Origin: Deinococcales bacterium
GTDB lineage: Bacteria; Deinococcota; Deinococci; Deinococcales; JAAFIG01
DNA: 64,000 bases
Assembly (NCBI GenBank): GCA_031414595.1
Contig: JANNVX010000088.1
Span: forward strand, 128,001-192,000
Direction of reading: 5' to 3'
The position numbers were made by a program, and so were the translations under genes. Numbering within the stretch: the first letter of the stretch is position 1; each line of letters starts with the position of its first letter. The notes under the pieces were generated by a model, which was given only the letters and a program-made list of their open reading frames with translations, searched no databases and was not told where the DNA came from. Positions 38 to 45,579 of this stretch are shown here, piece by piece.

Positions 38-121
38 CAAAGTGCATTCCAATCTACGTTAGACTTTTGGCATCGTGATTTTTGAGCAATTCGTTAAAAA
101 ATCTCATGCTAGGATACTCGA

Positions 122-3004
122 GTGATACAGTTTCTAGGGTTTGCGAAGTCTCAAAAAACCACCTTGGTCAACGAGTATGTCACCTATTTCATGACTTTTT
201 TAGCTTCTCGAGAAGGCTGGGTGACTCGAGAAGAATTGGCGCAGTTGCTCTGGGAGGGTGCGGATACGGCTGGACAATTAACGCGCTTACGGCAATTGCT
301 GTACCGCGTTAAATTACTTGGTTTTGCCGAACACCTTGAAGTCAAAAGAAGCCAGTTGCGCTGGAAATCTGATTGCGACCTGCGTATTTTTAAGAAAGCC
401 ATGCTCGAGCGTCAGTGGGAACTGGCGGTCAATACTTATCAAGGTAGTCTGCTCGAGGGAGTTGAAGTCTTTGAGTCACCAGAATTTGGGGCTTGGTTGC
501 AATTTGAACGCGAACACCTGAGTAGCGACTTTTGTCGAGCCACACTTGAATTAGCCGAATTACAACCAAATAACGCTTTGGATTTACTCGAGCAAGCCTA
601 TGATGTCGAGCCTCTGAATCAGACGTTGTTGGCTGCTTTACTGGGTCATGCTGACCTAAATTTTATACGTTTGCAACGAATCTGGAAAAAACATCTTCAG
701 CACTTGACCGAACTTGAATTACAACCTGAAGTTTCGCTTGTAGCCTTGGTCAGTCGCCTAGAATCGGGGTTTGGGTTGCCCGTAGCTGTACCACAACGCC
801 ATTTGCCGCTAACCCAACCCGAACTTCAACCGACCACGACCTTTGTTGGGCGTTTAGCCGAACTCGAGACTTTACAAACTTGGTTTCAGACCAGTCCAAC
901 TCAGAATAAACTCGGGCATTCGCGTTTACTAACCATTGTTGGTCTGGGCGGCACTGGAAAAACCCGTTTGGCTCAGGCGTTTTGCGCTCAGTTAAGTACG
1001 GCTTCAAATCTGGTATTTGTATCGCTTGCCAGCACTGATAGGCTCGAGTTAGTGCCGCAAGCGATTCTTGGGAAATTGCAGCTTTTATCTAAAACCGATG
1101 CCAAAGCCACACTGCTAGAACACCTAAAAACGTATCGGGGTTTGTTGGTACTTGATAACACCGAGCAAATAGAGGGTATACAAGACCTCGTTGCCCAGCT
1201 TTTGGGGTCATGCCCAGAAATGTATATTTTGTGTACGACAAGAGCTATGCTTGGTTTGCAATCAGAAATGGTTTTGCAACTGCAAGGTTTTCCCGCTCCA
1301 GTCATAAACAGTGCCTTTGAATTTCAGGATGCCATGATTTGTTTTGTCTCGGCTGCCCGAAGGCGCAAGCCAGAATTTAGCTTAAACCACGAGGATTACT
1401 CTGTGTTTTTGCGTTTACACCAAGCCGTTGCGGGTTTGCCACTTGGTTTTGAATTGGCTGCCAGTTGGATTTTTGGTTTGAGTCTCGAGGCAATTGTAGA
1501 GATGATTGAAACAGGTCTAATGCAGCTTCAATCAAGCGCCGCCGATGTGCCGCCGCGTCAGCGCAGTTTCAAAGCTGTGTTTGATGGCAGTTGGCGCTTA
1601 TTAAACAGCCAACAACAAAGTGGTTTAGCAGCCGTGTCGGTACTGCGTGGATTATTTGACCTCGAGATGGCACAAAAGGCGATTGGGGTAACATTACCAA
1701 CCCTGATGGCGCTGATTCAAAAGTCGCTCTTAAAACGCGAGGGCAATTTGTTTTACTTGCACGAATTGGTGCGCCAATACGCCGAACAGACCCTAAGTCC
1801 GACACAACGCCAAGAAATTCTGAATGGCTTACTCGAGTACAGTGTCCAGTATTCGCAGTTCTACAAAGTCAATTCAGCCCGTTCACACTATCTGCATTTG
1901 CGTTCATTAACCATCGAACTATACGATAATTTGCGTTTGGCATTGGAATTTGCACTCATTTCTAACCGCTCTAAAGCCATTTGCTTGATGACCGATTTAA
2001 GTGGATTTTGGACGGTTCAAGGCAAATTAAACGAAGCCAAGATTTGGTTCGGACACATCACCGAACACGACCTAAGTCAGGTTGATCTTGATACTCGGCT
2101 TGGTTTCCTGATTCAAAAAACCAACCTACTGGTCAATCTTTGTGGATATGAAGAAAGTCTCGAGCTTTTAGCGCAACTCAAATTCGCCGTTGAGAAATCT
2201 CCAAATAAGGTCTACGCAGCCGAGTATCATTTATGTGCTGGACTTAATTTTTATAGCCGAGCCAAGTTTGAAGATGCACTGCACAATTTAGAGCAAGCTG
2301 AAGAATTGTTTAGAACCACCGACGAAAAACGTCACGGCTATGCTTTGTATTTGCTTGGAACAGTCTGCCAACCTTTGAAGCAATCAGAGCGCGGCAAAGA
2401 ATGTTTACGCTTAGCCATCGAAGAAACAAGAAATTGTGATAGCAATAGTGTTCTAGCCGCAGCCATGAGTATTTTAGCCAATACCTATTTTCAAGAAATC
2501 CAAGATGATGTCGCGCTTTTGACCTATCAGCAATCTTTGGTGATTGCTAAAAAACTCAAAGATGGCAACCGAATCGCTTATATTTTGTCTGGAATTGGAC
2601 AAATTTTCAAAAAACAACAGCGTTATCTCGAGGCGCGTAAACATTTCCAAGAGGCTTTACAATACGCCTACCGAGCCAGACACTCAGCTTATTTTTACAG
2701 GATTTTTTTGTTTCTTGCCGAAGTCGAAATTTATTCAGACTCCACAACTGCCCTACAATATGTTGGGTTTTTTAGGCACAACTACCTGCGTTTAGTGGCG
2801 GTTTTGGGCGATGCAATGCAAAGCACCATCGAGAATTTATATGCCATCAGTGGTTTTTCGCCCTCTCACTGCCAACTTCTCGAGCAGCAAGGTGCTAAAT
2901 TAGGTGCAGACGAAGTGTTTGAAATGGCGATGCAAAACCGTGTTCAAGACACACCTGTACTGCCCCCGCCATTCTCGAGCCACAGCGCATTATCGGTAGT
3001 ATAA
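122..3004 (+). CDS. AfsR/SARP-like regulator: wHTH-BTAD, NB-ARC (STAND) ATPase, C-terminal TPRs
   Basis: N-terminal 'TREELAQLLW...LRQLLYR', BTAD 'YQGSLLEG..EF.AWL..ERE', Walker A GLGGTGKT, Walker B LLVLDN, GLPL motif, HELVRQY, TPR-like C-terminus. Confidence 0.9.
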   Translation: MIQFLGFAKSQKTTLVNEYVTYFMTFLASREGWVTREELAQLLWEGADTAGQLTRLRQLLYRVKLLGFAEHLEVKRSQLRWKSDCDLRIFKKAMLERQWELAVNTYQGSLLEGVEVFESPEFGAWLQFEREHLSSDFCRATLELAELQPNNALDLLEQAYDVEPLNQTLLAALLGHADLNFIRLQRIWKKHLQHLTELELQPEVSLVALVSRLESGFGLPVAVPQRHLPLTQPELQPTTTFVGRLAELETLQTWFQTSPTQNKLGHSRLLTIVGLGGTGKTRLAQAFCAQLSTASNLVFVSLASTDRLELVPQAILGKLQLLSKTDAKATLLEHLKTYRGLLVLDNTEQIEGIQDLVAQLLGSCPEMYILCTTRAMLGLQSEMVLQLQGFPAPVINSAFEFQDAMICFVSAARRRKPEFSLNHEDYSVFLRLHQAVAGLPLGFELAASWIFGLSLEAIVEMIETGLMQLQSSAADVPPRQRSFKAVFDGSWRLLNSQQQSGLAAVSVLRGLFDLEMAQKAIGVTLPTLMALIQKSLLKREGNLFYLHELVRQYAEQTLSPTQRQEILNGLLEYSVQYSQFYKVNSARSHYLHLRSLTIELYDNLRLALEFALISNRSKAICLMTDLSGFWTVQGKLNEAKIWFGHITEHDLSQVDLDTRLGFLIQKTNLLVNLCGYEESLELLAQLKFAVEKSPNKVYAAEYHLCAGLNFYSRAKFEDALHNLEQAEELFRTTDEKRHGYALYLLGTVCQPLKQSERGKECLRLAIEETRNCDSNSVLAAAMSILANTYFQEIQDDVALLTYQQSLVIAKKLKDGNRIAYILSGIGQIFKKQQRYLEARKHFQEALQYAYRARHSAYFYRIFLFLAEVEIYSDSTTALQYVGFFRHNYLRLVAVLGDAMQSTIENLYAISGFSPSHCQLLEQQGAKLGADEVFEMAMQNRVQDTPVLPPPFSSHSALSVV

Positions 3005-35681: not shown

Positions 35682-38351
35682 ATGCCCGTACTATCAATTG
35701 GAGACCGTCGCCTCGGAGCAATACTTTTACAACTTGGGTATGTATCAGACACAGACTTACAACGTGCTTTGGAAAAACACGCCGAACTCGGTGGTCGTTT
35801 AGCCGATATTTTGATCGACAATGGGATTGTCAATGAACGACGAATTGCCAGAGCCATCGAAGATGAACTTGGGTATCCTTTGGTCAATTTGGTGCTGCTC
35901 GAGCCAGAACCAGAAGTAACCGCCTTAATAGACGGCAATAAAGCCCAAGAACTGATGGCGTTTCCCTTTAAGTTCGAGAATGGCAAATTGCGGGTCGCCT
36001 TTGTTGACCCACTGAACACCATGGCAATAGAAGCCATCGAAGATGCCACAAATTGTGTTGTAGACCCGCACCAAGCCCTGCGTGACCATATTAAATGGGC
36101 GATTGCCACCTATTACCCCGAATTGGGTTTGGATATTCCAGAACTCGGTAAGTTGTCCAGCCCCGAAGAAGAACGGCTTGGCAATCGTTTGGCGCGTAAA
36201 GGGGTCATCACCGATGGGCAACTCGAGGAAGCTCTGGCGCTCCAAGAGCCAAATGGCGAACCGATAGGCAAAATTTTGGTGCGCTTAGGCTACTTACCCG
36301 AAGTCGAATTGTTTCGGGTGCTTGCCGAACAAGCCAATGCGCCGTTTATTGAAGATAGTATTTCCTTGGCTGTGCCAGAAGAAGTCTCGAGTTTACTGCT
36401 GCGTACCGATGCAGTGCGTTTTCAAGCCGTGCCAATCAGCGATGATGGCGTGACAATCACCATTGTTTGCCCTGAGCCAAAACGCCAACCAGACATTCAA
36501 GCCTTGTTCAAAAAACAAGTGCGAATTTCAATGATGGCACCTACCCAAGTCGAAGCCTTGATTGACCGTATCTATGTGTTCAAAGGGCAGGTAGGTACAA
36601 CTTTAATCATAGATGGTAAAATTAACCGTGAACAACTTGCCGAAGCGCTTAAAATCCAACGCAAAGAGGGGAAGTCCAAACCGCTTGGTGAAGTCCTTGT
36701 AGAACTCGGCTATGCCAGTTCCGATGAAGTAGACCGCGCCCTTGCCAAGCAAAAAACGGGTGGTGGTCGTCTCGAGGATACGCTGGTGCAGTCTGGCAAA
36801 CTCTCCCCAGAAATGCTGGCGAAGTCCTTGGCAGTGCAATTGGGCTATGAATTTGTCAATCCCGGGCAAGATGCCCCAGACCCCGGAGTGATTACCTTAA
36901 TCCCCGAAAATCAAGCGCGGCGTTATACACTTTTTCCTTATAAGATGCAGGGCAATGCACTGCAAGTTTTAATGAAAGACCCACGCAATGTCTTTGCCAT
37001 AGACGACTTAAAACTGATGACTGGGCGCGAGATTATTCCCGTCGTCGCCATCGAAGGCGATATTCAAAAACTGATTGACCGAGCGTATGGTGCAAGCGGA
37101 ATAAACGCCGATGAGTTAAATAAAGAACTGGCAGCCCTTGGTTCTGGTAGCAGTGGCAAAGTCGAAGAAATAGACTCGAGTTTAGACGATAACGCTGTGG
37201 TTCGCACGGTTGATCATGTCATCCGTGAAGCGATTCTGGCAGAGGCTTCGGATATTCACATCGAACCCACCCCAGACTTGGTGCGGGTTCGTTTTCGCAT
37301 AGACGGTTCGCTCAAAGAAATCACCACCCTGCCGAGGGCGAGTGCCAACAGTATTGCCGCCCGTATCAAAATCATGGGCGGCTTGGATATTGCTGAACGC
37401 CGCGTACCCCAAGATGGTCGGGTTAGTTTTAAGTCTAAAGGCATCAACTGCGATTTGCGTCTTTCTACCCTTCCCGTCAAATACGGTGAAAAAATTGTCA
37501 TGCGTGTGCTGCAAAAAGCTACCAACATTCCAGAAATCGAGGATTTGGGTTTCTCAGATTATAACTTAGAACGCTACAAAGACCTGATTCAAATCCCTTA
37601 CGGAATCTTTTTAATTACTGGTCCGACAGGTTCTGGTAAGTCCTACACGACCTTCTCGAGCCTAAAACGAATTGCTACCCCAGATATTAATGTCACCACC
37701 ATTGAAGACCCTATCGAATACGAAATTCCAGGCTTAAACCAATCACAAGTCAATAATGCGGCGGGTATGACTTTTGCGCGGGCGCTTAGGTCTTTTTTGC
37801 GGCAAGACCCAGACGTTATTATGGTCGGCGAAATCCGTGACACTGAAACCGCTAAAATTGCGGTTGAAGCTGCCCTGACAGGACATTTGGTGGTCGGAAC
37901 ACTCCACACCAATGATGCGGCTGGTGCAATTACTCGTCTCGAGGAAATGGGAGTAGAACTTTTCAATGTTTCGGCTTCCTTAGTTGGGGTACTAGCTCAG
38001 CGTTTAGTGCGTAAAGTCTGCAAAGACTGCAAACAAGAACTGCCCGCCGACCCTGAAGTGCTACGCCGCCTCGGAGTCAGTGAGGAGCAAGTGGTCGGAC
38101 GTACCATCGTTAAAGGTTTGGGCTGCAACAAATGCAGTGATACAGGTTATAAAGGTCGTATGGCAATCCACGAATTGATGGTGGTGGACGATCATGTTCG
38201 CAAGGCAATCATTGAACATAAAACTTCGACTGAAATCAGACAAATTGCCAGAGAAAAAGCTGGGCTTGTGACCTTAATGGAAGATGGTCTCGAAAAAGCC
38301 CTGCAAGGTAAAACCACGCTTGAGGAAATCGCCAGCGCAATCTCTGACTAA
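35682..38351 (+). CDS. pilB: type IV pilus assembly ATPase (PilB/Thermus PilF-type) with multiple MshEN/GSPII-N domains
   Basis: Repeated RLGxxLxxxG motifs, GPTGSGKS, RQDPDVIMVGEIRD, CxxC..CxxC zinc site. Confidence 0.95.
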   Translation: MPVLSIGDRRLGAILLQLGYVSDTDLQRALEKHAELGGRLADILIDNGIVNERRIARAIEDELGYPLVNLVLLEPEPEVTALIDGNKAQELMAFPFKFENGKLRVAFVDPLNTMAIEAIEDATNCVVDPHQALRDHIKWAIATYYPELGLDIPELGKLSSPEEERLGNRLARKGVITDGQLEEALALQEPNGEPIGKILVRLGYLPEVELFRVLAEQANAPFIEDSISLAVPEEVSSLLLRTDAVRFQAVPISDDGVTITIVCPEPKRQPDIQALFKKQVRISMMAPTQVEALIDRIYVFKGQVGTTLIIDGKINREQLAEALKIQRKEGKSKPLGEVLVELGYASSDEVDRALAKQKTGGGRLEDTLVQSGKLSPEMLAKSLAVQLGYEFVNPGQDAPDPGVITLIPENQARRYTLFPYKMQGNALQVLMKDPRNVFAIDDLKLMTGREIIPVVAIEGDIQKLIDRAYGASGINADELNKELAALGSGSSGKVEEIDSSLDDNAVVRTVDHVIREAILAEASDIHIEPTPDLVRVRFRIDGSLKEITTLPRASANSIAARIKIMGGLDIAERRVPQDGRVSFKSKGINCDLRLSTLPVKYGEKIVMRVLQKATNIPEIEDLGFSDYNLERYKDLIQIPYGIFLITGPTGSGKSYTTFSSLKRIATPDINVTTIEDPIEYEIPGLNQSQVNNAAGMTFARALRSFLRQDPDVIMVGEIRDTETAKIAVEAALTGHLVVGTLHTNDAAGAITRLEEMGVELFNVSASLVGVLAQRLVRKVCKDCKQELPADPEVLRRLGVSEEQVVGRTIVKGLGCNKCSDTGYKGRMAIHELMVVDDHVRKAIIEHKTSTEIRQIAREKAGLVTLMEDGLEKALQGKTTLEEIASAISD

Positions 38352-38423: not shown

Positions 38424-41279
38424 ATGACAGCCACCGCCGTCACAACTGTTCATTTGTCAACTTTAGGGCAACACCGTCTCGAGGGTCGTTCATTTACTCG
38501 CCCAAAAGCCGTGGCGTTTTTGACCTACTTACTGTTTGAAGGTCGGCAAAATCGGCATTTTCTGGCAGATTTTTTCTGGCAAGATGCCGAAGACCCAATG
38601 AATAGCCTACGCAATCAAATTTTTCAGCTTAAACCTTTTGTCGCAGATGCCCTAGTAACCTCACGGCAAAGCATCGAATTTATTGGAACTTGTGATGCCC
38701 TCGAGCTACTGCATTTACTCGAACTGGGGCAATTAGAAGCAGCCATAGCACTTTATCAAGGCGAATTTCTAGCTGGTTTTGAAGCACCGGACAACATCGA
38801 ACTGGCTGCATGGCTCAAAACCACCCGCCAATTTATTAAACGCCAAGTTCTCGAGGCTTATTTACAACTCTGCGAAAAGGCTTTAGCGCAAAAAAACCTT
38901 GACCAGATAGAGCCATACCTCGAGCAAGCCCAGAATGTACTGAATTTGGGCAGCACCGACTTAAAATCGTGGTTTACCCGACGAGTTGAGGACTTACAAA
39001 GTCGTATCCAAGAACAACAAAAACAAGTTACCCCCCATAATTTAATACCTTCCAGCAGCGAATTTATTGGACGAAGCCAAGAAATCAGTACAATTTTAAT
39101 CAATTTTCAAAATCAAGCCCAGTTGCTAACCCTGTTTGGCTTTGGCGGCATTGGCAAAACTACGCTTGCGCTCGAGACTGCCCGAACTGCTTTGCAGACC
39201 CAACAATACTTAGACGGTATTTACTTTATTGCCTTAGAAACAGCCCAAACCGAAAACGATTTACTGGCTCGAGTCGTCACGACCCTAGAAATAACTTTAC
39301 AAACCAGTCAGCCGATGCTTGAGCAGATTAAAACCTTTATTGGCGTTAAATCCATGTTGCTGGTTTTAGACAATTTCGAGCAACTGACCGAACAAACCCA
39401 CTTAATCGCCGAATTACTCGAGAACAGCCCAAATCTGCGTGTACTTTGCACCAGCCGTGAAGTGCTTGGCTTACAAGCCGAACATGTCTACCCGATTTCT
39501 GGACTCGAGACTACAAATATCAGTAGTGGCGCAGTGCAACTCTTTACCACTCGAGCCGCCGAAGAGTTTTCGAGCCAAGAACTTGAAATTATTTTAGAGA
39601 TTGTCCGAGTCTTACAAGGTATCCCATTAGCCATAGAACTGGCAGTCCCACAATTAAAGACTTTTAGTTTGCTCGAGTTACAAGCTGCCTTGCAAAAAAG
39701 CATGGATGCCCTACAAAGCCAAACCACCGAACTACCCGAGCGTCAACGCAGCATCCGAGCCGTGTTTTTACATTCATGGGCATTACTGAGCCAAGCCGAA
39801 CGCCAAGGCTTACAGCGCATGGCAGTTTTTAAGAACGGCGCAAACCGCCATGCGCTCTTAACCATAGCCCAAATTAGTCTATCGCAGATTGCCAATTTAA
39901 TAGATAAATCCTTTGTGCAACGGGCTGGACAACAACGGTACACGATTCATCCGCTTATTCTCGAGTACACTTTGGAGCTACTACAAGCCGACTCGGAATT
40001 TGCACCGATGCTAGGTAAGCACGCGTTTTTTTACCTAGACCAAATTGGCAACGAATTACCAAAAATTAGGGGAGCAGAAGCGGCGGCTGTGATGCAGAAA
40101 ATAGAAACTGATTTTGACAACCTAAAAGCAGCTTGGGCATGGGCGCTCGAGAATAAGGATTTTCCTCGAATAGCGGCACTCGAGGAAATGGTGGTCTACT
40201 TTGACCAGAAAGCACTTTTTTTTCAGGGGATAGAGTTTTTTGAAGAAGCGAATAGCAAACTTAAAGATGTTGTAAACCAGCCGTTGATGCTAAGTGGAAT
40301 AGCCATTGGAATTGCTTGGTTAAATTACCGTTTGGGGAACGCTGAGAAAGCAAAAATGTATGCAGAGTGTGCAGTTGAGTGTGCTAAAAGCGAGCTAATT
40401 TTAGGAAAAAATAATCTATCAAAAGCGTTCAATATTTTAGGAAGTATTGCATCATTAGATTATGAACACACAGCAGCATTGAATTATTTTAATGAAGCGG
40501 TTCGATATTGTGACTCTGATAATCTTAAAATTAGGAAAGTGACGCTTCTTTTAAGGATAGCAGGAATTTACCGAGAACTCGAGGATTTTGAAGGGTTTTG
40601 GGAAGTTTGGGAGTCTGCTTATGCAATAAATCAAGAATTGAATCTCGATACTTTAAGAGTTTTAGTGACCATACAAAAAGCAAACTTCATACTTTACTAT
40701 GTTTCAAAAGAAGAAATTATAAAATTTATACCTGAAATGATCGAAGTTTATAATCTAACTCGAAGTAGTTCTGTTAATGGTCAACCTTATTTTGAAGTTT
40801 TAATTTGCCAGTGTTATTTAGCTGTCAAAGATTTGAAAAATGCGGAATTCTGGCTTCAAAAGTTCATCCTAAGAGATACGTCTCAAATGAATCACCAGCT
40901 CAACTTTTTCTCGCAATCACTATTCGGAAAAATTGAAATACTGAAAGGGAATCGTAAAAATGCCAAAGACATATTGATCAACATTTTCTTTGTTCCCTTT
41001 GAAAGACACAATATTTTAACATTCTTTATGACTTCGGTTAGCTTAGTTGACTTACTCCCAGAGGTTTATAGCAACGATTTTCGGGATTTAGTAAAACTGG
41101 TCATCACTCATAAAGCGATGACCAGTCAGAAGATTTTAGTTAAGCAGTATTTGAAAGAAGAGTCTTTTGATGTGAGACTGGAATTACTTCAAGAGACTTC
41201 TGACCAGCAAATAGAATCTGCTCAACAGCGTATTATTGGTATGTTACGGACCACCGCCGTAGTTAGTAGGGTCAGCTAG
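38424..41279 (+). CDS. AfsR/SARP-like regulator: wHTH-BTAD, NB-ARC ATPase, TPR sensor
   Basis: 'LADFFW...NSLR', 'LYQGEFLAG', GFGGIGKT, LLVLDNFE, GIPLAIELA, HPLILEY, TPR C-terminus. Confidence 0.9.
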   Translation: MTATAVTTVHLSTLGQHRLEGRSFTRPKAVAFLTYLLFEGRQNRHFLADFFWQDAEDPMNSLRNQIFQLKPFVADALVTSRQSIEFIGTCDALELLHLLELGQLEAAIALYQGEFLAGFEAPDNIELAAWLKTTRQFIKRQVLEAYLQLCEKALAQKNLDQIEPYLEQAQNVLNLGSTDLKSWFTRRVEDLQSRIQEQQKQVTPHNLIPSSSEFIGRSQEISTILINFQNQAQLLTLFGFGGIGKTTLALETARTALQTQQYLDGIYFIALETAQTENDLLARVVTTLEITLQTSQPMLEQIKTFIGVKSMLLVLDNFEQLTEQTHLIAELLENSPNLRVLCTSREVLGLQAEHVYPISGLETTNISSGAVQLFTTRAAEEFSSQELEIILEIVRVLQGIPLAIELAVPQLKTFSLLELQAALQKSMDALQSQTTELPERQRSIRAVFLHSWALLSQAERQGLQRMAVFKNGANRHALLTIAQISLSQIANLIDKSFVQRAGQQRYTIHPLILEYTLELLQADSEFAPMLGKHAFFYLDQIGNELPKIRGAEAAAVMQKIETDFDNLKAAWAWALENKDFPRIAALEEMVVYFDQKALFFQGIEFFEEANSKLKDVVNQPLMLSGIAIGIAWLNYRLGNAEKAKMYAECAVECAKSELILGKNNLSKAFNILGSIASLDYEHTAALNYFNEAVRYCDSDNLKIRKVTLLLRIAGIYRELEDFEGFWEVWESAYAINQELNLDTLRVLVTIQKANFILYYVSKEEIIKFIPEMIEVYNLTRSSSVNGQPYFEVLICQCYLAVKDLKNAEFWLQKFILRDTSQMNHQLNFFSQSLFGKIEILKGNRKNAKDILINIFFVPFERHNILTFFMTSVSLVDLLPEVYSNDFRDLVKLVITHKAMTSQKILVKQYLKEESFDVRLELLQETSDQQIESAQQRIIGMLRTTAVVSRVS

Positions 41280-41384
41280 GGTGACTCCTAACAGGCTTGA
41301 AGCACCAAACATCAGAGCAAGCAAAGCTAAAGTAACAACCAAGGGCTTTGTGAGTTGCATGAGAACTAATTTTAAATTTTTCAT
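41244..41384 (-). CDS. 46-aa secreted prepeptide (signal peptide + DPTNYGGGP), not in ORF track
   Basis: AAGGAGGTG RBS then ATG; MKNLKLVLMQLTKPLVVTLALLALMFGASSLLGVTLA|DPTNYGGGP*. Confidence 0.8.
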   Translation of the reverse strand: MKNLKLVLMQLTKPLVVTLALLALMFGASSLLGVTLADPTNYGGGP

Positions 41385-41426
41385 AAACACCTCCTTCGGC
41401 TATACTTAGCCGAAGGAGGTGTTTAT
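41383..41426. promoter_or_regulatory. perfect 20-bp inverted repeat covering the prepeptide RBS
   Basis: ATAAACACCTCCTTCGGCTA-tact-TAGCCGAAGGAGGTGTTTAT. Confidence 0.8.
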
Positions 41427-41482
41427 TTGCAATCGTCGCGGCTTCTAAAACGTTTACTGTTTAACAGAGTAGGAAGAATAGA

Positions 41483-41935
41483 TTAGGGTCCACCACCAAA
41501 GTTTGTTGGATTACCAATATCATCACCCATTTTAGCAACAGGCAACTCGAGCAATTCGCCTTTCGCGTTGACCAATTCAAATTGCCCTTCAACTGGATTT
41601 GAAGTTCCAGCCGCTTCGCCCGGAATAACATACAGCCACCAGCCTTTGTAGACAATTTGTTGTTGGGCTTTGTCTGGGTTTCCGCCGCGTGTAATTGTGC
41701 TTAGGTCGCCTTGGTTCACGCCGCTTCCAGCTTTGGGTGTGCCAATTAATGGACTCCATTGCAAAATGAATTCCTGCATATAACCGGGGAATTGGTCGCC
41801 CCACGGGATGTACTTGTGGAATGGGTCGGTTTGCATTGGGCGGTACAAGTACACGGTTTGGTTTGTGCCAGTGACCAAGTGTGTGCCGTCACTCGAGACT
41901 TGGATAATGACTGTTTGGGCTGCTTCGTCTGCCAT
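41483..41935 (-). CDS. COG4315/Lipoprotein_15-like repeat protein without signal peptide, ending in NPTNFGGGP
   Basis: LV....TVYLY, W.PL...KAGSGV....L.TITR, Q.VYKGW.LY pattern; GAGGTG RBS. Confidence 0.7.
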   Translation of the reverse strand: MADEAAQTVIIQVSSDGTHLVTGTNQTVYLYRPMQTDPFHKYIPWGDQFPGYMQEFILQWSPLIGTPKAGSGVNQGDLSTITRGGNPDKAQQQIVYKGWWLYVIPGEAAGTSNPVEGQFELVNAKGELLELPVAKMGDDIGNPTNFGGGP

Positions 41936-42107
41936 GTTTCACCTCTGGGTTAGATTTTATTGCTTTTAGAGTCTATCAGAAATAGAACGGAAAACGGATT
42001 GCTCGAAGTGAACGAGGTTGCAAAATCACAAGAATAGATTCACAAACAACGTAATCGTGAATAAAATCACAAAATAGGCACTGCTTTTCTTGATATGCTT
42101 ACTAGCC

Positions 42108-43460
42108 ATGAATATTGAAAATGCCAAGACAGAACTGCTCGAATGGCTTGCCATTCCTAGCATCAGCACCCTTTCCGAACGCGCCCCCGAAATGCGCCAA
42201 GCTGCCGAATACCTGCATCAAAAACTAAGTAGTCTTGGCATTACCTCGAGTATCCTCGAGACGGCTGGACATCCCGTGGTGTACGCCGAACACCTCAAAG
42301 CAGACTCTAGCGCCCCAACGGTTTTATTGTACGGACATTACGATGTTCAACCCACCGACCCCGAAAACGAATGGACAACCCCACCGTTTGCCCCAGAAAT
42401 CCGAGACCAAGCCATTTATGCTCGAGGCAGCACCGACGACAAAGGACAAGTCTGGGCGCATGTGGCAGCTTTAGAGCATCACCTAACGACCCACGGAAAA
42501 TTGCCTGTCAACCTTAAAATTTTAATCGAAGGCGAAGAAGAAATCGGCAGCCCTAACCTTAAACCTTTTGTCCAGTGGAATGCGGCTAAACTCGGCTGTG
42601 ATGTGGTGGTGATTTCCGATGGCAGCATGTTCGCGCCAAACGTCCCGACCCTGACGACTGGACTGCGTGGATTGTGTTATCTCGAGGTGCATGTTCAAGG
42701 CGCAAAACAAGACCTGCATTCGGGCGGCTACGGCGGTGCAGTCGCCAACCCAATTCAAGCCCTCGCCCAGATTATTCAGAGCCTTCGCAATGGCAACGGC
42801 GAGATTCTGATTCCAAGCATATATAACGATGTGCGCCCTGTCCCACCAGAAGAACTCGAGGGCTGGAAGCGTTTACCTTTTGATGAAGCAGCCCTGATGA
42901 AATCTGTGGGAGTCAGCGCCCTGCCCGGTGAAACCGGATACTCTGTCCTCGAGCGGCTCTGGGCAAGACCGACCTTAGAGATTAACGGCATCTGGGGCGG
43001 ATTTAGTGGCGAAGGACAAAAAACTGTGCTGCCCGCTAAGGCTGGCGCAAAAATCAGCCTCAGACTTGTGCCAGACCAAGAACCAGACCAAATTTTTGAA
43101 TTGGTCAAAAACCATATTCATAGCCTCGAGTTACCCGGCGTGACCGTCAGGGTTAAAAAACTACACACTGGTAATCCAGCGCTGGTGGACGCAAACAGCC
43201 CCGCCGCCCAAGCTGCGATTGCCGCCCTGTCTCGAGCTTACCCAAATGTTAAGCCATCCTTGGTACGGACTGGCGGTACAATCCCAGTGGTTTCGGTTTT
43301 CCGCGAAGTGCTAAACGCACCTGTATTACTGGTGGATTACGGCTTACCAGATGACGGAGCGCACGGACCAAATGAACGTTTTACGCTCGAGTGTTTTGAA
43401 AAAGGCATAGAAACCAGTATTTACTTATACGAAGAACTGGCAAAACTCGAGAAACGCTAA
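42108..43460 (+). CDS. M20 family dipeptidase
   Basis: YGHYDVQP, ARGSTDDKG, EGEEEIGS, DLHSG, AHGPNE. Confidence 0.93.
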   Translation: MNIENAKTELLEWLAIPSISTLSERAPEMRQAAEYLHQKLSSLGITSSILETAGHPVVYAEHLKADSSAPTVLLYGHYDVQPTDPENEWTTPPFAPEIRDQAIYARGSTDDKGQVWAHVAALEHHLTTHGKLPVNLKILIEGEEEIGSPNLKPFVQWNAAKLGCDVVVISDGSMFAPNVPTLTTGLRGLCYLEVHVQGAKQDLHSGGYGGAVANPIQALAQIIQSLRNGNGEILIPSIYNDVRPVPPEELEGWKRLPFDEAALMKSVGVSALPGETGYSVLERLWARPTLEINGIWGGFSGEGQKTVLPAKAGAKISLRLVPDQEPDQIFELVKNHIHSLELPGVTVRVKKLHTGNPALVDANSPAAQAAIAALSRAYPNVKPSLVRTGGTIPVVSVFREVLNAPVLLVDYGLPDDGAHGPNERFTLECFEKGIETSIYLYEELAKLEKR

Positions 43461-43589: not shown

Positions 43590-45464
43590 TTAGGAAGGTA
43601 AACCAATTGAGTTTTGTGGAACATCTATTGTGCGCCGAACTCGCTCAACTGCTTCCTTGACCGTTTCGCCAGTAATAATTTCATTCTCGAGCAGGGCGTT
43701 AGCCACATCGTGCATGGCTTGGGCATATTGTTTCATGACCGTCTTGGTGTTGGCATACGCCCTGTCTAAAATATCTTTGATGTCTGCATCTATCATTCGG
43801 GCAGTTTCATCTGAAACTTCGGAACGATTGACCAACTGATCGCCCAAGAAAACAGGTCCACTGCTTGCGCCACCCCAAGCGATATTCCGTAATCTATCGC
43901 CCATGCCCCACTCGAGAACCATGCGCCGAGCCAGTTGCAAAGTGCGCTGGAAATCGTTTGACGCACCAGCCCCAACGTAGCCAATAAATTCTTCTTCGGC
44001 AGCCCGACCAGCCAATGCCGCCGCCAGCGTTGCTTCAGCGCGTTGTTGGGTCATCTCGAGCATTTCTGATTCGTTTTCGGGAGCGAACATCGCCACACCT
44101 AGAGTTCTACCACGCGGCACAATACTGACCTTGACAGGTTTCATGGCGTAGGGCAGGACTTGAGAAATCACGGCATGACCAGCTTCGTGGTACGCCGTAG
44201 CGCGTTTCATTTCGTTGGAAATCATCATGCTGCCATGCTCGAGACCAAGCGTAATTTTATCAAATGCCCTCGAGAAATCCATCATTTTGATGATGTTCGC
44301 CCCGCGTCTGGCTGCCTCGAGTGCAGCTTCATTAGCAAGGTTTTTGAGGTCAGCCCCGCTCATGCCCGGAGTCATTTTGGAAAGCATTTCGACGTTGACA
44401 TCTGGGTCAATTGGTTTATTCCGCATATGAACTTGGACAATTTGTTCGCGTTCTTTCATGGTCGGTAAATCCACTGTGACTTGACGGTCAAAACGCCCCG
44501 GACGAAGAAGCGCCGAATCGAGAATATCAGGGCGATTGGTTGCCGCCATAATAATCACGGATGTTTGCTTATCAAAACCATCCATTTCAGTCAGGATTTG
44601 ATTCAGGGTTTGTTCGCGTTCATCATGACCGCCACCAATACCCGCGCCGCGTTTACGACCAATGCTGTCAAGCTCGTCAATAAAAATAATGGCTGGCGAG
44701 GCTTTACGCGCATCATCGAACAAACTCCGAACTCGAGACGCACCAACACCGACAAACATTTCCATGAATTCGGAAGCTGAAACGGTGAAAAATGGCACAC
44801 CAGCTTCTCCTGCCACCGCTCGAGCCAACAGCGTTTTACCAGTACCGGGAGGTCCAACCAGCAACACGCCTTTTGGAATTTCTGCCCCAACTGCATGGTA
44901 CTTACCGGGATTCTTAAGAAAATCCACAACCTCGATTAACTCGCGCTTGACCTCTTCGTGACCCGCCACATCGGGGAACATGGTACTGACTTTTTTCTCT
45001 TTACCGTACTGCTTGGCTCGAGACTGCCCGAACTGCATGACCTGCCCTTGAGCGCCTTGCCCACGCATAAAAATAAACCAGAAAATACCGAGCATCAAAA
45101 GTACAGGTAAAAACGCGGTCAGTAAACCAAGCCACGGCGAAGGATTCTGTGCCTGAATTGCCACATTGTTTTTCTTTAAAGTTGGCATCAAATCTGGGTC
45201 TCGAGCCTCCACCGAAGGCAATAAGGTACTAAAGGTGCTGAGTTCAACTGACCTATCGCCAATCAAGATTCGTTCAATTTGTTTGGTTTTTAGATCAAGC
45301 CGATTCTCGGTAATCGAAACACTTTCAACTTTACCCGCTTCGACAAGCCCAAGAAACTGTGAGTAACTGATTTGCCGTCCGCCAGAACCACCAGGGTTAA
45401 AAGCATTAAAAGCAAAGAACAACGCGATAATAACAAGGAAAATAACAAACGGATTAATTTTCAA
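43590..45464 (-). CDS. ftsH: ATP-dependent zinc metalloprotease FtsH
   Basis: Two TM helices, [38 protein letters not shown] start after AAGGAG. Confidence 0.95.
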
Positions 45465-45579
45465 CGGAGGTGCCTCCTTCAAAGGCGGAGAGGGGAAAAG
45501 CAAAGCTAACAGCAACAATATACAACGTGGTCTGTGAGGAACAATGTACTCGAGACCGTAAAAATGCTAAAATCATCCA

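Follow-up and report, generated by a model that had tools for sequence, protein, structure and literature searches.

A Gly-Pro-ended small protein and its convergent AfsR-like STAND regulator as a candidate peptide-sensing module of Deinococcota

In the RRNPP systems of Bacillota (Rap-Phr, NprR-NprX, PlcR-PapR and AimR-AimP), a cytoplasmic TPR receptor, in which a helix-turn-helix or phosphatase domain is fused directly to the TPR domain with no NTPase in between, is encoded beside the gene of a secreted pre-peptide of 40-50 amino acids (aa), the active part of which lies at the extreme C-terminus. The pherotype cassettes agrBDC of staphylococci and comQXP of Bacillus are polymorphic blocks that span the signal-peptide gene and the sensor part of the receptor between conserved flanks. 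TPR domains also bind free C-termini through a carboxylate clamp, as Hop does with EEVD-COOH and PEX5 with SKL-COOH. AfsR, a large SARP regulator of Streptomyces with the domain order BTAD, NB-ARC and TPR, is regulated through phosphorylation and in turn activates afsS, a small gene downstream of it. The natural activating signal of AfsR is still treated as unidentified in the accessible part of a preprint of October 2026 (10.64898/2026.09.02.748808). Here we analysed a 64,000-nucleotide stretch of a Deinococcales genome, hereafter the window (NCBI GenBank assembly GCA_031414595.1, contig JANNVX010000088.1, positions 128,001 to 192,000 of the forward strand; genome G000 in our set), in which an AfsR-like STAND regulator converges on the gene of a 150-aa protein, p150, that ends in Gly-Pro (GP), with a small open reading frame (sORF) carrying a second copy of the p150 tail between them (Table 1). 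The p150 tail and the STAND sensor constitute a real and probably new module.

Table 1. Features of the locus, with positions counted in the window
Feature	Position	Strand	Description
AfsR-like STAND regulator	38424-41279	plus	951 aa
Domains of the regulator			winged-helix-like, ~aa 10-90; BTAD, ~91-200; NB-ARC NOD, ~215-520; TPR-like repeats, ~526-900
Block differing between strains	40224-41573		sensor C-terminal module, sORF, hairpin and tail-coding end of p150
Variable C-terminal sensor module	40344-41279	plus	regulator aa 641-951
sORF	41244-41384	minus	46 codons; signal-peptide-like N-terminal 37 residues, then DPTNYGGGP
Hairpin	41383-41426		perfect 20-bp palindrome with a 4-nt loop, by folding
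p150 tail with stop codon	41483-41515	minus	GNPTNFGGGP; hypervariable save for the terminal GGP
p150	41483-41935	minus	150 aa; GP-COOH family; two beta-rich repeats with Y-[RK]-G-W-x-L-Y; disordered tail

The gene of p150 is the next one upstream of the sORF on the same strand and is preceded by a conserved ribosome-binding site (RBS), GAGGTGA. The protein starts MAD..., has no signal peptide, and matched neither a Pfam family at E<=0.1 nor an NCBIfam model. Its AlphaFold2 (AF2) model is beta-rich, with a predicted local distance difference test (pLDDT) of 69, and residues 133-150 fall below 50, which leaves the last 18 residues disordered. Structural similarity search with Foldseek against the PDB returned nothing at E<=0.001 for this model of only moderate quality. 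A metatranscriptome contig of 202 nt (run X17), from a 95% identical relative, covers 41741-41942 and thus the 5' half of p150; none of the RNA-library contigs lies on the sORF, and since these runs consist of contigs, the uncovered stretches are uninformative.

Searching 1.84 billion cluster representatives with a profile of 16 p150 homologues yielded 366 proteins at E<=1e-3. The family proteins of up to 225 aa, 67 in all (60 from the listing of the profile search and 7 close relatives), end in GP in 63 cases, compared to none of the longer multi-repeat relatives, which we take from their motif to be COG4315. The terminal Gly and Pro (G149 and P150 in p150) do not vary in either of two alignments, with 16 and 54 members, and position -7 of the tail is Pro in 27 of 56 sequences and Gln or Glu in 10. 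Directly beside the invariant GGP, the tail forms the most variable 8-column window of 11 genus-level p150 orthologues, at 1.05-1.23 bits against a mean of 0.36. We define the GP-COOH family by a single domain of 140-220 aa, the motif Y-[RK]-G-W-x-L-Y, a disordered tail, a Gly-Pro end and a convergent STAND gene; p150 possesses all of these features and lacks those of COG4315/PF03640, namely a PF03640 match and a signal or lipoprotein peptide. The p150 family was matched in 129 of the 301 Deinococcota genomes sampled, a tally that includes the unpublished genome G265, which entered the analysis only in this count. Five GP-ended proteins of unknown organisms (P0046, P0050, P0065, P0105 and P0125) have signal- or lipoprotein-like N-termini and tails of the form GG-x-K-[VIT]-[NY]-N-x-GP.

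The p150 gene is paired with a STAND regulator far beyond the window. Among 41 distinct Deinococcota loci encoding a single-domain GP-ended p150 homologue, a convergent STAND regulator abuts or overlaps the 3' end of p150 in 35, or in 35 of the 38 with enough flank, the other three ending at a contig edge. The multi-repeat relatives in other phyla have neither the GP end nor a STAND neighbour, and a metagenome scan gave 19 loci, the only GP-type one of which (L086) has a STAND gene, the rest encoding multi-repeat relatives. The same association is found within the genome of the window: a GP end is found in seven of its 8,820 open reading frames (ORFs) of at least 99 aa, including four that are p150-like. 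The genome has 19 STAND paralogues of at least 600 aa, and the four that are closest to the regulator of the window each have one of these p150-like genes in convergent orientation. The first-pass annotation had taken the sORF for the partner of the regulator; the sORF is indeed a selected gene, as described below, but the widely conserved partner, with the same tail, is p150.

The regulator resembles AfsR in its overall architecture. Pfam search identified NB-ARC with 40.9 bits (cut-off 23.5), in addition to BTAD (PF03704; 20.4 bits, cut-off 22.1) and TPR_12 (20.7 bits), which both stay just below their cut-offs; orthologues score above these cut-offs, and of 14 orthologues BTAD is matched in 4 (best E 2e-17) and TPR_12 in 12. 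The profile of these 14 orthologues matches AfsR (PDB 8k60/8jke), the best solved-structure match by sequence, over aa 102-527 with an E-value of 5e-29, and its TPR part matches LGN/Pins, kinesin light chain and, weakly, Rap (Rap3T E 9e-8, RapH 2e-7). The AF2 model (pLDDT 80.8) displays the BTAD helices, the NOD and about 13 helix pairs, with helical repeats at aa 526-900, and the highest-ranking Foldseek hits were the STAND-TPR protein 6mfv, plant NLRs and Apaf-1. Altogether, Pfam, profile, AF2 and Foldseek agree with the first-pass annotation in assigning an AfsR-like STAND regulator with a TPR region that resembles peptide-binding TPRs. The same annotation had inferred an RRNPP-like circuit; the regulator itself lies outside the RRNPP family and carries BTAD and an NB-ARC NOD before the TPR region. 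It shows the BTAD and NB-ARC-then-TPR organization of large SARP/AfsR-like regulators, and differs from AfsR proper, with 32.8 bits against the cut-off of 1430 of the equivalog NF053617.

At the N-terminus of the regulator, aa 10-86 are modelled as two strands, three helices and two further strands with a pLDDT of 81-89, a fold that we take to be a winged helix. PF00486 is absent from all 14 orthologues at E<=0.01, and aa 1-120 alone gave no PDB match; the putative DNA-binding head thus rests on the AF2 model and the fold presumed for it. Co-folding of the sensor (aa 500-951) with full-length p150 gave a score of 0.05 (mark 0.32) and counts neither for nor against binding.

Comparison of strains showed that the tail and the C-terminal part of the sensor differ as one block. 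The regulators of G000 and its relative G004 share 86-87% of their residues up to aa 500 and 74% between aa 501 and 640, and the identity drops to 15-24% over aa 641-951, where G004 resembles another relative, G007, instead (51-62%). At the DNA level, in 150-nt windows, G000 and G004 are 78-89% identical at 38424-40223 and 89-94% at 41574-41935, compared to 45-66% with many gaps over the block in between. Two types of sensor module are distinguished in this genus (g1): G000, G003 and G005 have module A, accompanied by the sORF and by tails of the type DPTxxxGGP, whereas G004 and G007 have module B, accompanied by the tail PGVPNYGGP and no sORF. In a second genus (g5), regulator residues 1-610 are 76-93% identical among four genomes, beyond about residue 610 the identity is 20-60%, and the tails differ. 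Co-variation of peptide and TPR region, which the first-pass annotation had suggested looking for, appears as a one-block difference in g1, with a sharp sensor boundary also in g5. This arrangement resembles pherotype cassettes. The convergent gene order keeps the DNA of the tail and of the sensor module within about 1.3 kb, so that both can recombine as one specificity cassette.

The module occurs in several variants. Genomes of the genus taken as Deinococcus (L025, L026 and L065-L082) usually have two tandem p150 paralogues with distinct tails (for instance ...AEQQGP and ...LPGPFLGP), followed by the convergent STAND gene. In the genome of the window, two highly divergent GP-ended p150-like genes at C30:6083-9526 and C75:49280-52779 (tails TPPAGIGP and TPPPGFGP) both converge with a STAND paralogue; the family profile does not reach as far as the C75 partner, which only its motifs and GP end gave away. 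Another module, in the contig of the window at C88:280356-284749 (L021, 3429-7738), comprises a p150 paralogue ending QKIGAGP, a cytoplasmic divergent glutaminyl cyclase and a convergent STAND protein of 1023 aa, and the same three-gene order is seen in a metagenome-assembled genome of Trueperaceae (L024/L043). A further BTAD/NB-ARC/TPR paralogue, an open frame of 963 aa at 113-3004 on the plus strand of the window, has no visible GP-ended convergent partner.

Another explanation of the pair, which we regard as unlikely, is that of a regulator and its target: the STAND protein would be a cluster-situated SARP activator of p150 and the sORF, these would be precursors of a secreted or modified product resembling ribosomally synthesized and post-translationally modified peptides (RiPPs), the GP-COOH end would be read by something else, for instance an enzyme of processing, modification or export, and the TPR region would sense an unrelated signal. 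SARPs typically activate adjacent biosynthetic genes, and the nearest NCBIfam models of the NOD region include TPR proteins of RiPP/FxSxx-COOH systems, far below their cut-offs. Peptide maturation is also suggested by the dedicated glutaminyl cyclase (PF05096, divergent, without signal peptide) that lies between p150 and the STAND gene in two modules, the second one of G000 and that of G027. The p150 tails linked to it have Q or E at position -7 (QKIGAGP and ESYASGP), which fits the release of a pyroglutamyl heptapeptide; as the divergent cyclase occurs in only 2 of the 301 genomes sampled, the linkage is anecdotal. Across the loci, however, the pair has no other conserved neighbour of biosynthetic, protease or transporter type. 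Upstream of p150, TTGTGA occurs three times and might be taken for activator sites; the copies are spaced by 27 and 14 nt, which makes SARP-type direct repeats unconvincing, and they precede the -10-like TAGACT by 56-97 nt. Both spacing and position are unlike SARP sites, which have a phasing of 11 or 22 nt over the -35 element. Above all, a regulator-target relation leaves the joint block variation of the sensor C-terminal module and the tail unexplained. It is nevertheless compatible with the sensing of the tail by the STAND protein, for autoinduction loops combine both.

Between the two genes, the sORF has exactly the extent first claimed for it, with its ATG at 41384, a stop codon at 41246-41244 and an overlap of 36 nt with the 3' end of the regulator (stop at 41279), and would count 48 codons if the GTG at 41390 were used. 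Its product begins MKNLK... and consists of a basic N-region (K2, K5 and K13), a hydrophobic core of about 24 residues, ...GVTLA, and DPTNYGGGP directly before the stop codon; its signal peptide is assigned solely from composition and the -3/-1 rule. The 4.49-Mb assembly contains 38,269 six-frame ORFs of 30-80 aa; a crude signal-peptide rule is satisfied by 464, 14 end in GP and one, the sORF, in GGP; ORFs ending in PTN[FY]GGGP are restricted to the sORF and p150 in the whole genome. The tails of these two are identical at 7 of 9 residues, and five of the seven codons concerned differ synonymously, so that the likeness is old and maintained. DPTNYGGGP and the variable part of the p150 tail share their starting point, [ND]-P. 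Compared to its orthologue in G003, the sORF has 16 synonymous and 13 non-synonymous differences, corresponding to a ratio of non-synonymous to synonymous substitution rates (dN/dS) of 0.27, or 0.24 over the 34 codons free of the regulator overlap, against 0.68 and 1.25 in the two remaining frames of the same strand. Because of its genome-unique GGP end and this ratio, the sORF is not a chance ORF; it is a selected gene under purifying selection.

The alleles of the sORF have the same organization. The intact ones end in DPTNYGGGP (G000), DPTGYNGGP (G003) and GDPPGLNGGP (P0160, a JGI metagenome peptide); in all three the signal-peptide part is conserved, the tail is hypervariable and GGP is invariant, in line with the exported pre-peptide anatomy inferred in the first-pass annotation. 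In G005, a deletion took the hairpin and the first ~11 codons, and the leftover frame ends GDPGIPTGGP. Within g5, an sORF is present only in G015 (MKKLSRVLAVFAVLGLGVMA-GVQKGIITPPIAPNGPSTVNGGP), with the tail NGPSTVNGGP, a signal peptide without evident similarity to that of the window, the consensus RBS GAAGGAGGTGA 6 nt 5' of the ATG, and an unstructured leader that contains no hairpin. The p150 tail of G015, GGPTSLNSGP, resembles the tail of its own sORF and is unlike the PP[WY]-type tails of three of the four g5 sister genomes, the fourth ending GGHIPVYGGP. Among the GP-ending ORFs listed for 25 more loci, no further sORF joining a signal peptide to a GP end was noticed by eye. Gene callers of public collections list the sORF peptide and two relatives (P0158-P0160). 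A 151-nt metagenome contig from another study (run X5) matches 41268-41318, 51 nt of the signal-peptide region, with one mismatch and then diverges; the reverse complement of its new part appears to encode ...PTGGP, hinting at further tail alleles.

The sORF has no match in Pfam or NCBIfam, the hit to LsrD (E 0.046, 12.9 bits against a cut-off of 500) being noise. Nor is it an internally deleted p150 that kept a p150 signal peptide, given that the Deinococcota p150 proteins read start MAD... or MS... without one.

The start of the sORF is embedded in the hairpin. The RBS-like AAGGAGGTG lies 4 nt 5' of the ATG and, together with the A and U of the AUG, makes up the 3' arm on the sORF strand, so that the RBS is masked in any transcript that includes the 5' arm; the strong RBS of the first-pass annotation is thus present in sequence but sequestered by 20 bp. 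A 111-nt stretch with the hairpin folds at -39 kcal/mol (z -6.7). The sequence of the 5' arm (CACCUCCUU) is identical to that at the 3' end of the 16S rRNA of the same genome. As a U-rich run follows on the plus strand, the hairpin probably terminates the regulator transcript, in which case the sORF would be antisense within the 3' untranslated region of the regulator. A mobile repeat element was considered and rejected, the hairpin being single-copy in the genome.

In G003 the hairpin is kept, with the 4-nt loop and its closing pair reverse-complemented: on the sORF strand, they read AAGTAT in G000 and ATACTT in G003 (loop at 41403-41406 of the window; about 6100-6131 of L030). There, a promoter-like TTGCAA-18-TATACT faces the sORF with its -10 element within the loop (one site found, 0.7 expected by chance). 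If transcription started at this consensus match, the 5' end of the mRNA would fall within the 3' arm, and the RBS would be unpaired. The -10-like hexamer TATACT lies on the opposite strand in G000, and a flip of the palindrome loop may therefore toggle a promoter.

These features bear on whether the sORF is a signal at all. It could instead encode an uncleaved single-pass membrane protein, or be a decaying partial duplicate of the p150 3' end within the regulator 3' untranslated region, the pair of p150 and STAND being all that matters, an explanation we consider improbable. The hydrophobic stretch of ~24 residues is long, like that of a membrane anchor; the RBS and AUG lie within a very stable, terminator-like hairpin shared by both convergent genes; and the sORF has lost its start in G005 and is missing from most relatives. 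Against both readings stand the dN/dS of 0.24 in the overlap-free part compared to 0.68 and 1.25 in the other frames, the three intact alleles that conserve the signal-peptide part and diversify tails that keep GGP, and the g5 version with its dissimilar signal peptide, unstructured leader and consensus RBS. The promoter-like site in the G003 loop would moreover free the RBS, and the sORF is unique in the genome.

We propose that the genome has four paralogous modules of ligand and sensor, one of which lies in the window. An AfsR-like transcription factor would be the sensor, with a SARP head for DNA binding, NB-ARC as its nucleotide switch and the TPR region for sensing. The p150 tail, flexible and ending in Gly-Pro with a free carboxylate, would be read by the C-terminal half of the TPR sensor, either on the protein or as a cut peptide of 7-9 residues, and this reading would release the NB-ARC switch and change transcription. 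The Q or E at position -7 of the cyclase-linked tails would fit such a cut. In the sORF product, another copy of the tail would follow immediately upon a Sec signal peptide; after export and cleavage by signal peptidase behind T-L-A, DPTNYGGGP would be outside the cell, and its re-uptake by neighbours would let it act on the same sensor, adding a kin or quorum layer over an intracellular circuit. Of these steps, we infer the binding, proteolytic release, export, import and regulatory output from the arrangement and variation of the genes. The whole proposal, with recognition of the GP-COOH tail in the C-terminal half of the TPR sensor and a resulting flip of the NB-ARC switch, we credit about as much as we doubt. 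A quorum-sensing reading is plausible; its specific form, an exported and re-imported sORF peptide, is doubtful.

Several observations weigh against the proposal. In G000 and G003, the RBS and start codon of the sORF are locked in a hairpin of about -35 kcal/mol. The sORF, which the first-pass annotation expected beside homologous regulators, was found there in G003 and G015 but is rare: it is intact in three genomes seen in context, in addition to one database peptide, truncated in G005, and missing in G004, G007, G011, G016 and G017, close relatives among them. Three genomes of the genus taken as Deinococcus (G123, G168 and G108) carry tandem p150 genes with no STAND gene within 6 kb. No protease or exporter is conserved beside the pair of p150 and STAND across the loci, and p150 itself has no signal peptide. 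In g5, tail and sensor do not match one-to-one, the tails of G016 and G017 being fairly similar and their sensor modules 20-42% identical; g1 has only two module types, so that co-variation rests on few independent events. Finally, hypervariable sensors also fit a role in immunity or conflict.

Such a role, with the STAND protein as an NLR-like guard and p150 as a decoy or guardee whose tail is targeted by an invader protease in an arms race, is very unlikely: many prokaryotic STANDs are anti-phage sensors according to the accessible part of PMC13581612, NTPase conflict systems are accompanied by small proteins that evolve fast but conserve a C-terminal peptide in that of PMC7159879, and the sensor end is hypervariable with 19 paralogues in one genome, yet the N-terminal module is a predicted SARP head rather than a nuclease, protease or pore effector, the same part of PMC13581612 puts AfsR-type transcription regulators in non-immune STAND clades, the loci scanned showed no neighbouring phage or mobile genes, and a guard model offers no evident use for secreting the tail.

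Other genes of the neighbourhood were also inspected. Upstream of the regulator, 35682-38351 (plus strand) encodes an 889-aa type IV pilus/type II secretion system ATPase with three MshEN/GSPII-N-like domains, presumably resembling Thermus PilF, that ends 72 nt before the regulator start; its G003 orthologue has T2SSE and three MshEN stretches, and the regulator could be co-transcribed with it. On the other side, an M20-family peptidase (42090-43460, plus strand) is transcribed divergently from p150, kept in G003 and not found beside the pair in other genera, and it is followed by an FtsH-like protease (43590-45518, minus strand) that is not conserved with the module. The genome contains 15 matches to SBP_bac_5, the OppA/DppA type of peptide-binding protein, which are candidates for the proposed uptake of the peptide.

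For the TPR sensors of AfsR-type "bacterial NLRs", the p150 tail is singled out as a genetically encoded candidate ligand by gene order, by its constant Gly-Pro end and by the sensor-plus-tail block, and is directly testable with synthetic peptides. Cultured carriers of the pair include at least Deinococcus petrolearius (L044), many further genomes of the genus taken as Deinococcus have it too, and a new widespread protein family with 366 library matches gains a defining feature and a likely partner. In our literature search, with most subscription journals outside its reach, neither the GP-COOH family nor its pairing with STAND proved to be described, and the papers matching a C-terminal Gly-Pro were unrelated. 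More broadly, we tentatively envisage a peptide code of Deinococcota, in which AfsR-like NLR-type factors would read Gly-Pro-COOH peptides of 7-9 residues borne by, or released from, a dedicated family of precursors, some lineages would also secrete them from a minimal gene joining signal peptide and tail, and tail and sensor would form a recombining cassette. If true, this would be the first natural ligand class of large SARP regulators; and if the secreted mini-peptide works, peptide-TPR cell-cell signalling of the RRNPP kind would reach beyond Bacillota.

Compared to the known systems, the module combines features of several. As in the carboxylate clamps, a TPR groove is proposed to read a tail that is short and disordered, never varies in its last residue and ends in a free carboxylate; those clamps belong to eukaryotic chaperone and import systems, and the likeness is one of proposed recognition, not of homology. 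The FxSxx-COOH systems (Haft; Kaur et al. 2020, eLife) share small fast-diverging proteins with a family-defining C-terminal peptide thought to be cut off and a linkage to NB-ARC/TPR proteins, as given in the accessible part of PMC7159879, whereas here the motif is x-G-P-COOH, the predicted output is DNA binding and no metallopeptidase or radical-SAM gene is adjacent; the regulator is not a member of their TPR protein family NF040586, with 42.7 bits against a cut-off of 300. AfsR and the large SARPs have the same BTAD/NB-ARC/TPR order and differ in that no GP-COOH partner has been described for AfsR, from whose NCBIfam cut-off the regulator remains far. With the RRNPP systems, the module shares a cytoplasmic TPR receptor beside a putative pre-peptide gene of similar size, the proposed position of the active part at the extreme C-terminus and a presumably diversifying peptide specificity; unlike them, it has a predicted SARP head and an NB-ARC switch, occurs in Deinococcota, and includes a folded cytoplasmic partner of 150 aa where RRNPP has a secreted pro-peptide, convergent genes and an invariant Gly-Pro. 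Similar to agrBDC and comQXP, the specificities of ligand and receptor would be exchanged together; however, the receptors of those cassettes are membrane histidine kinases and their peptides are modified, whereas here the receptor is a cytoplasmic STAND protein and the block is held together by the convergent order of its genes.

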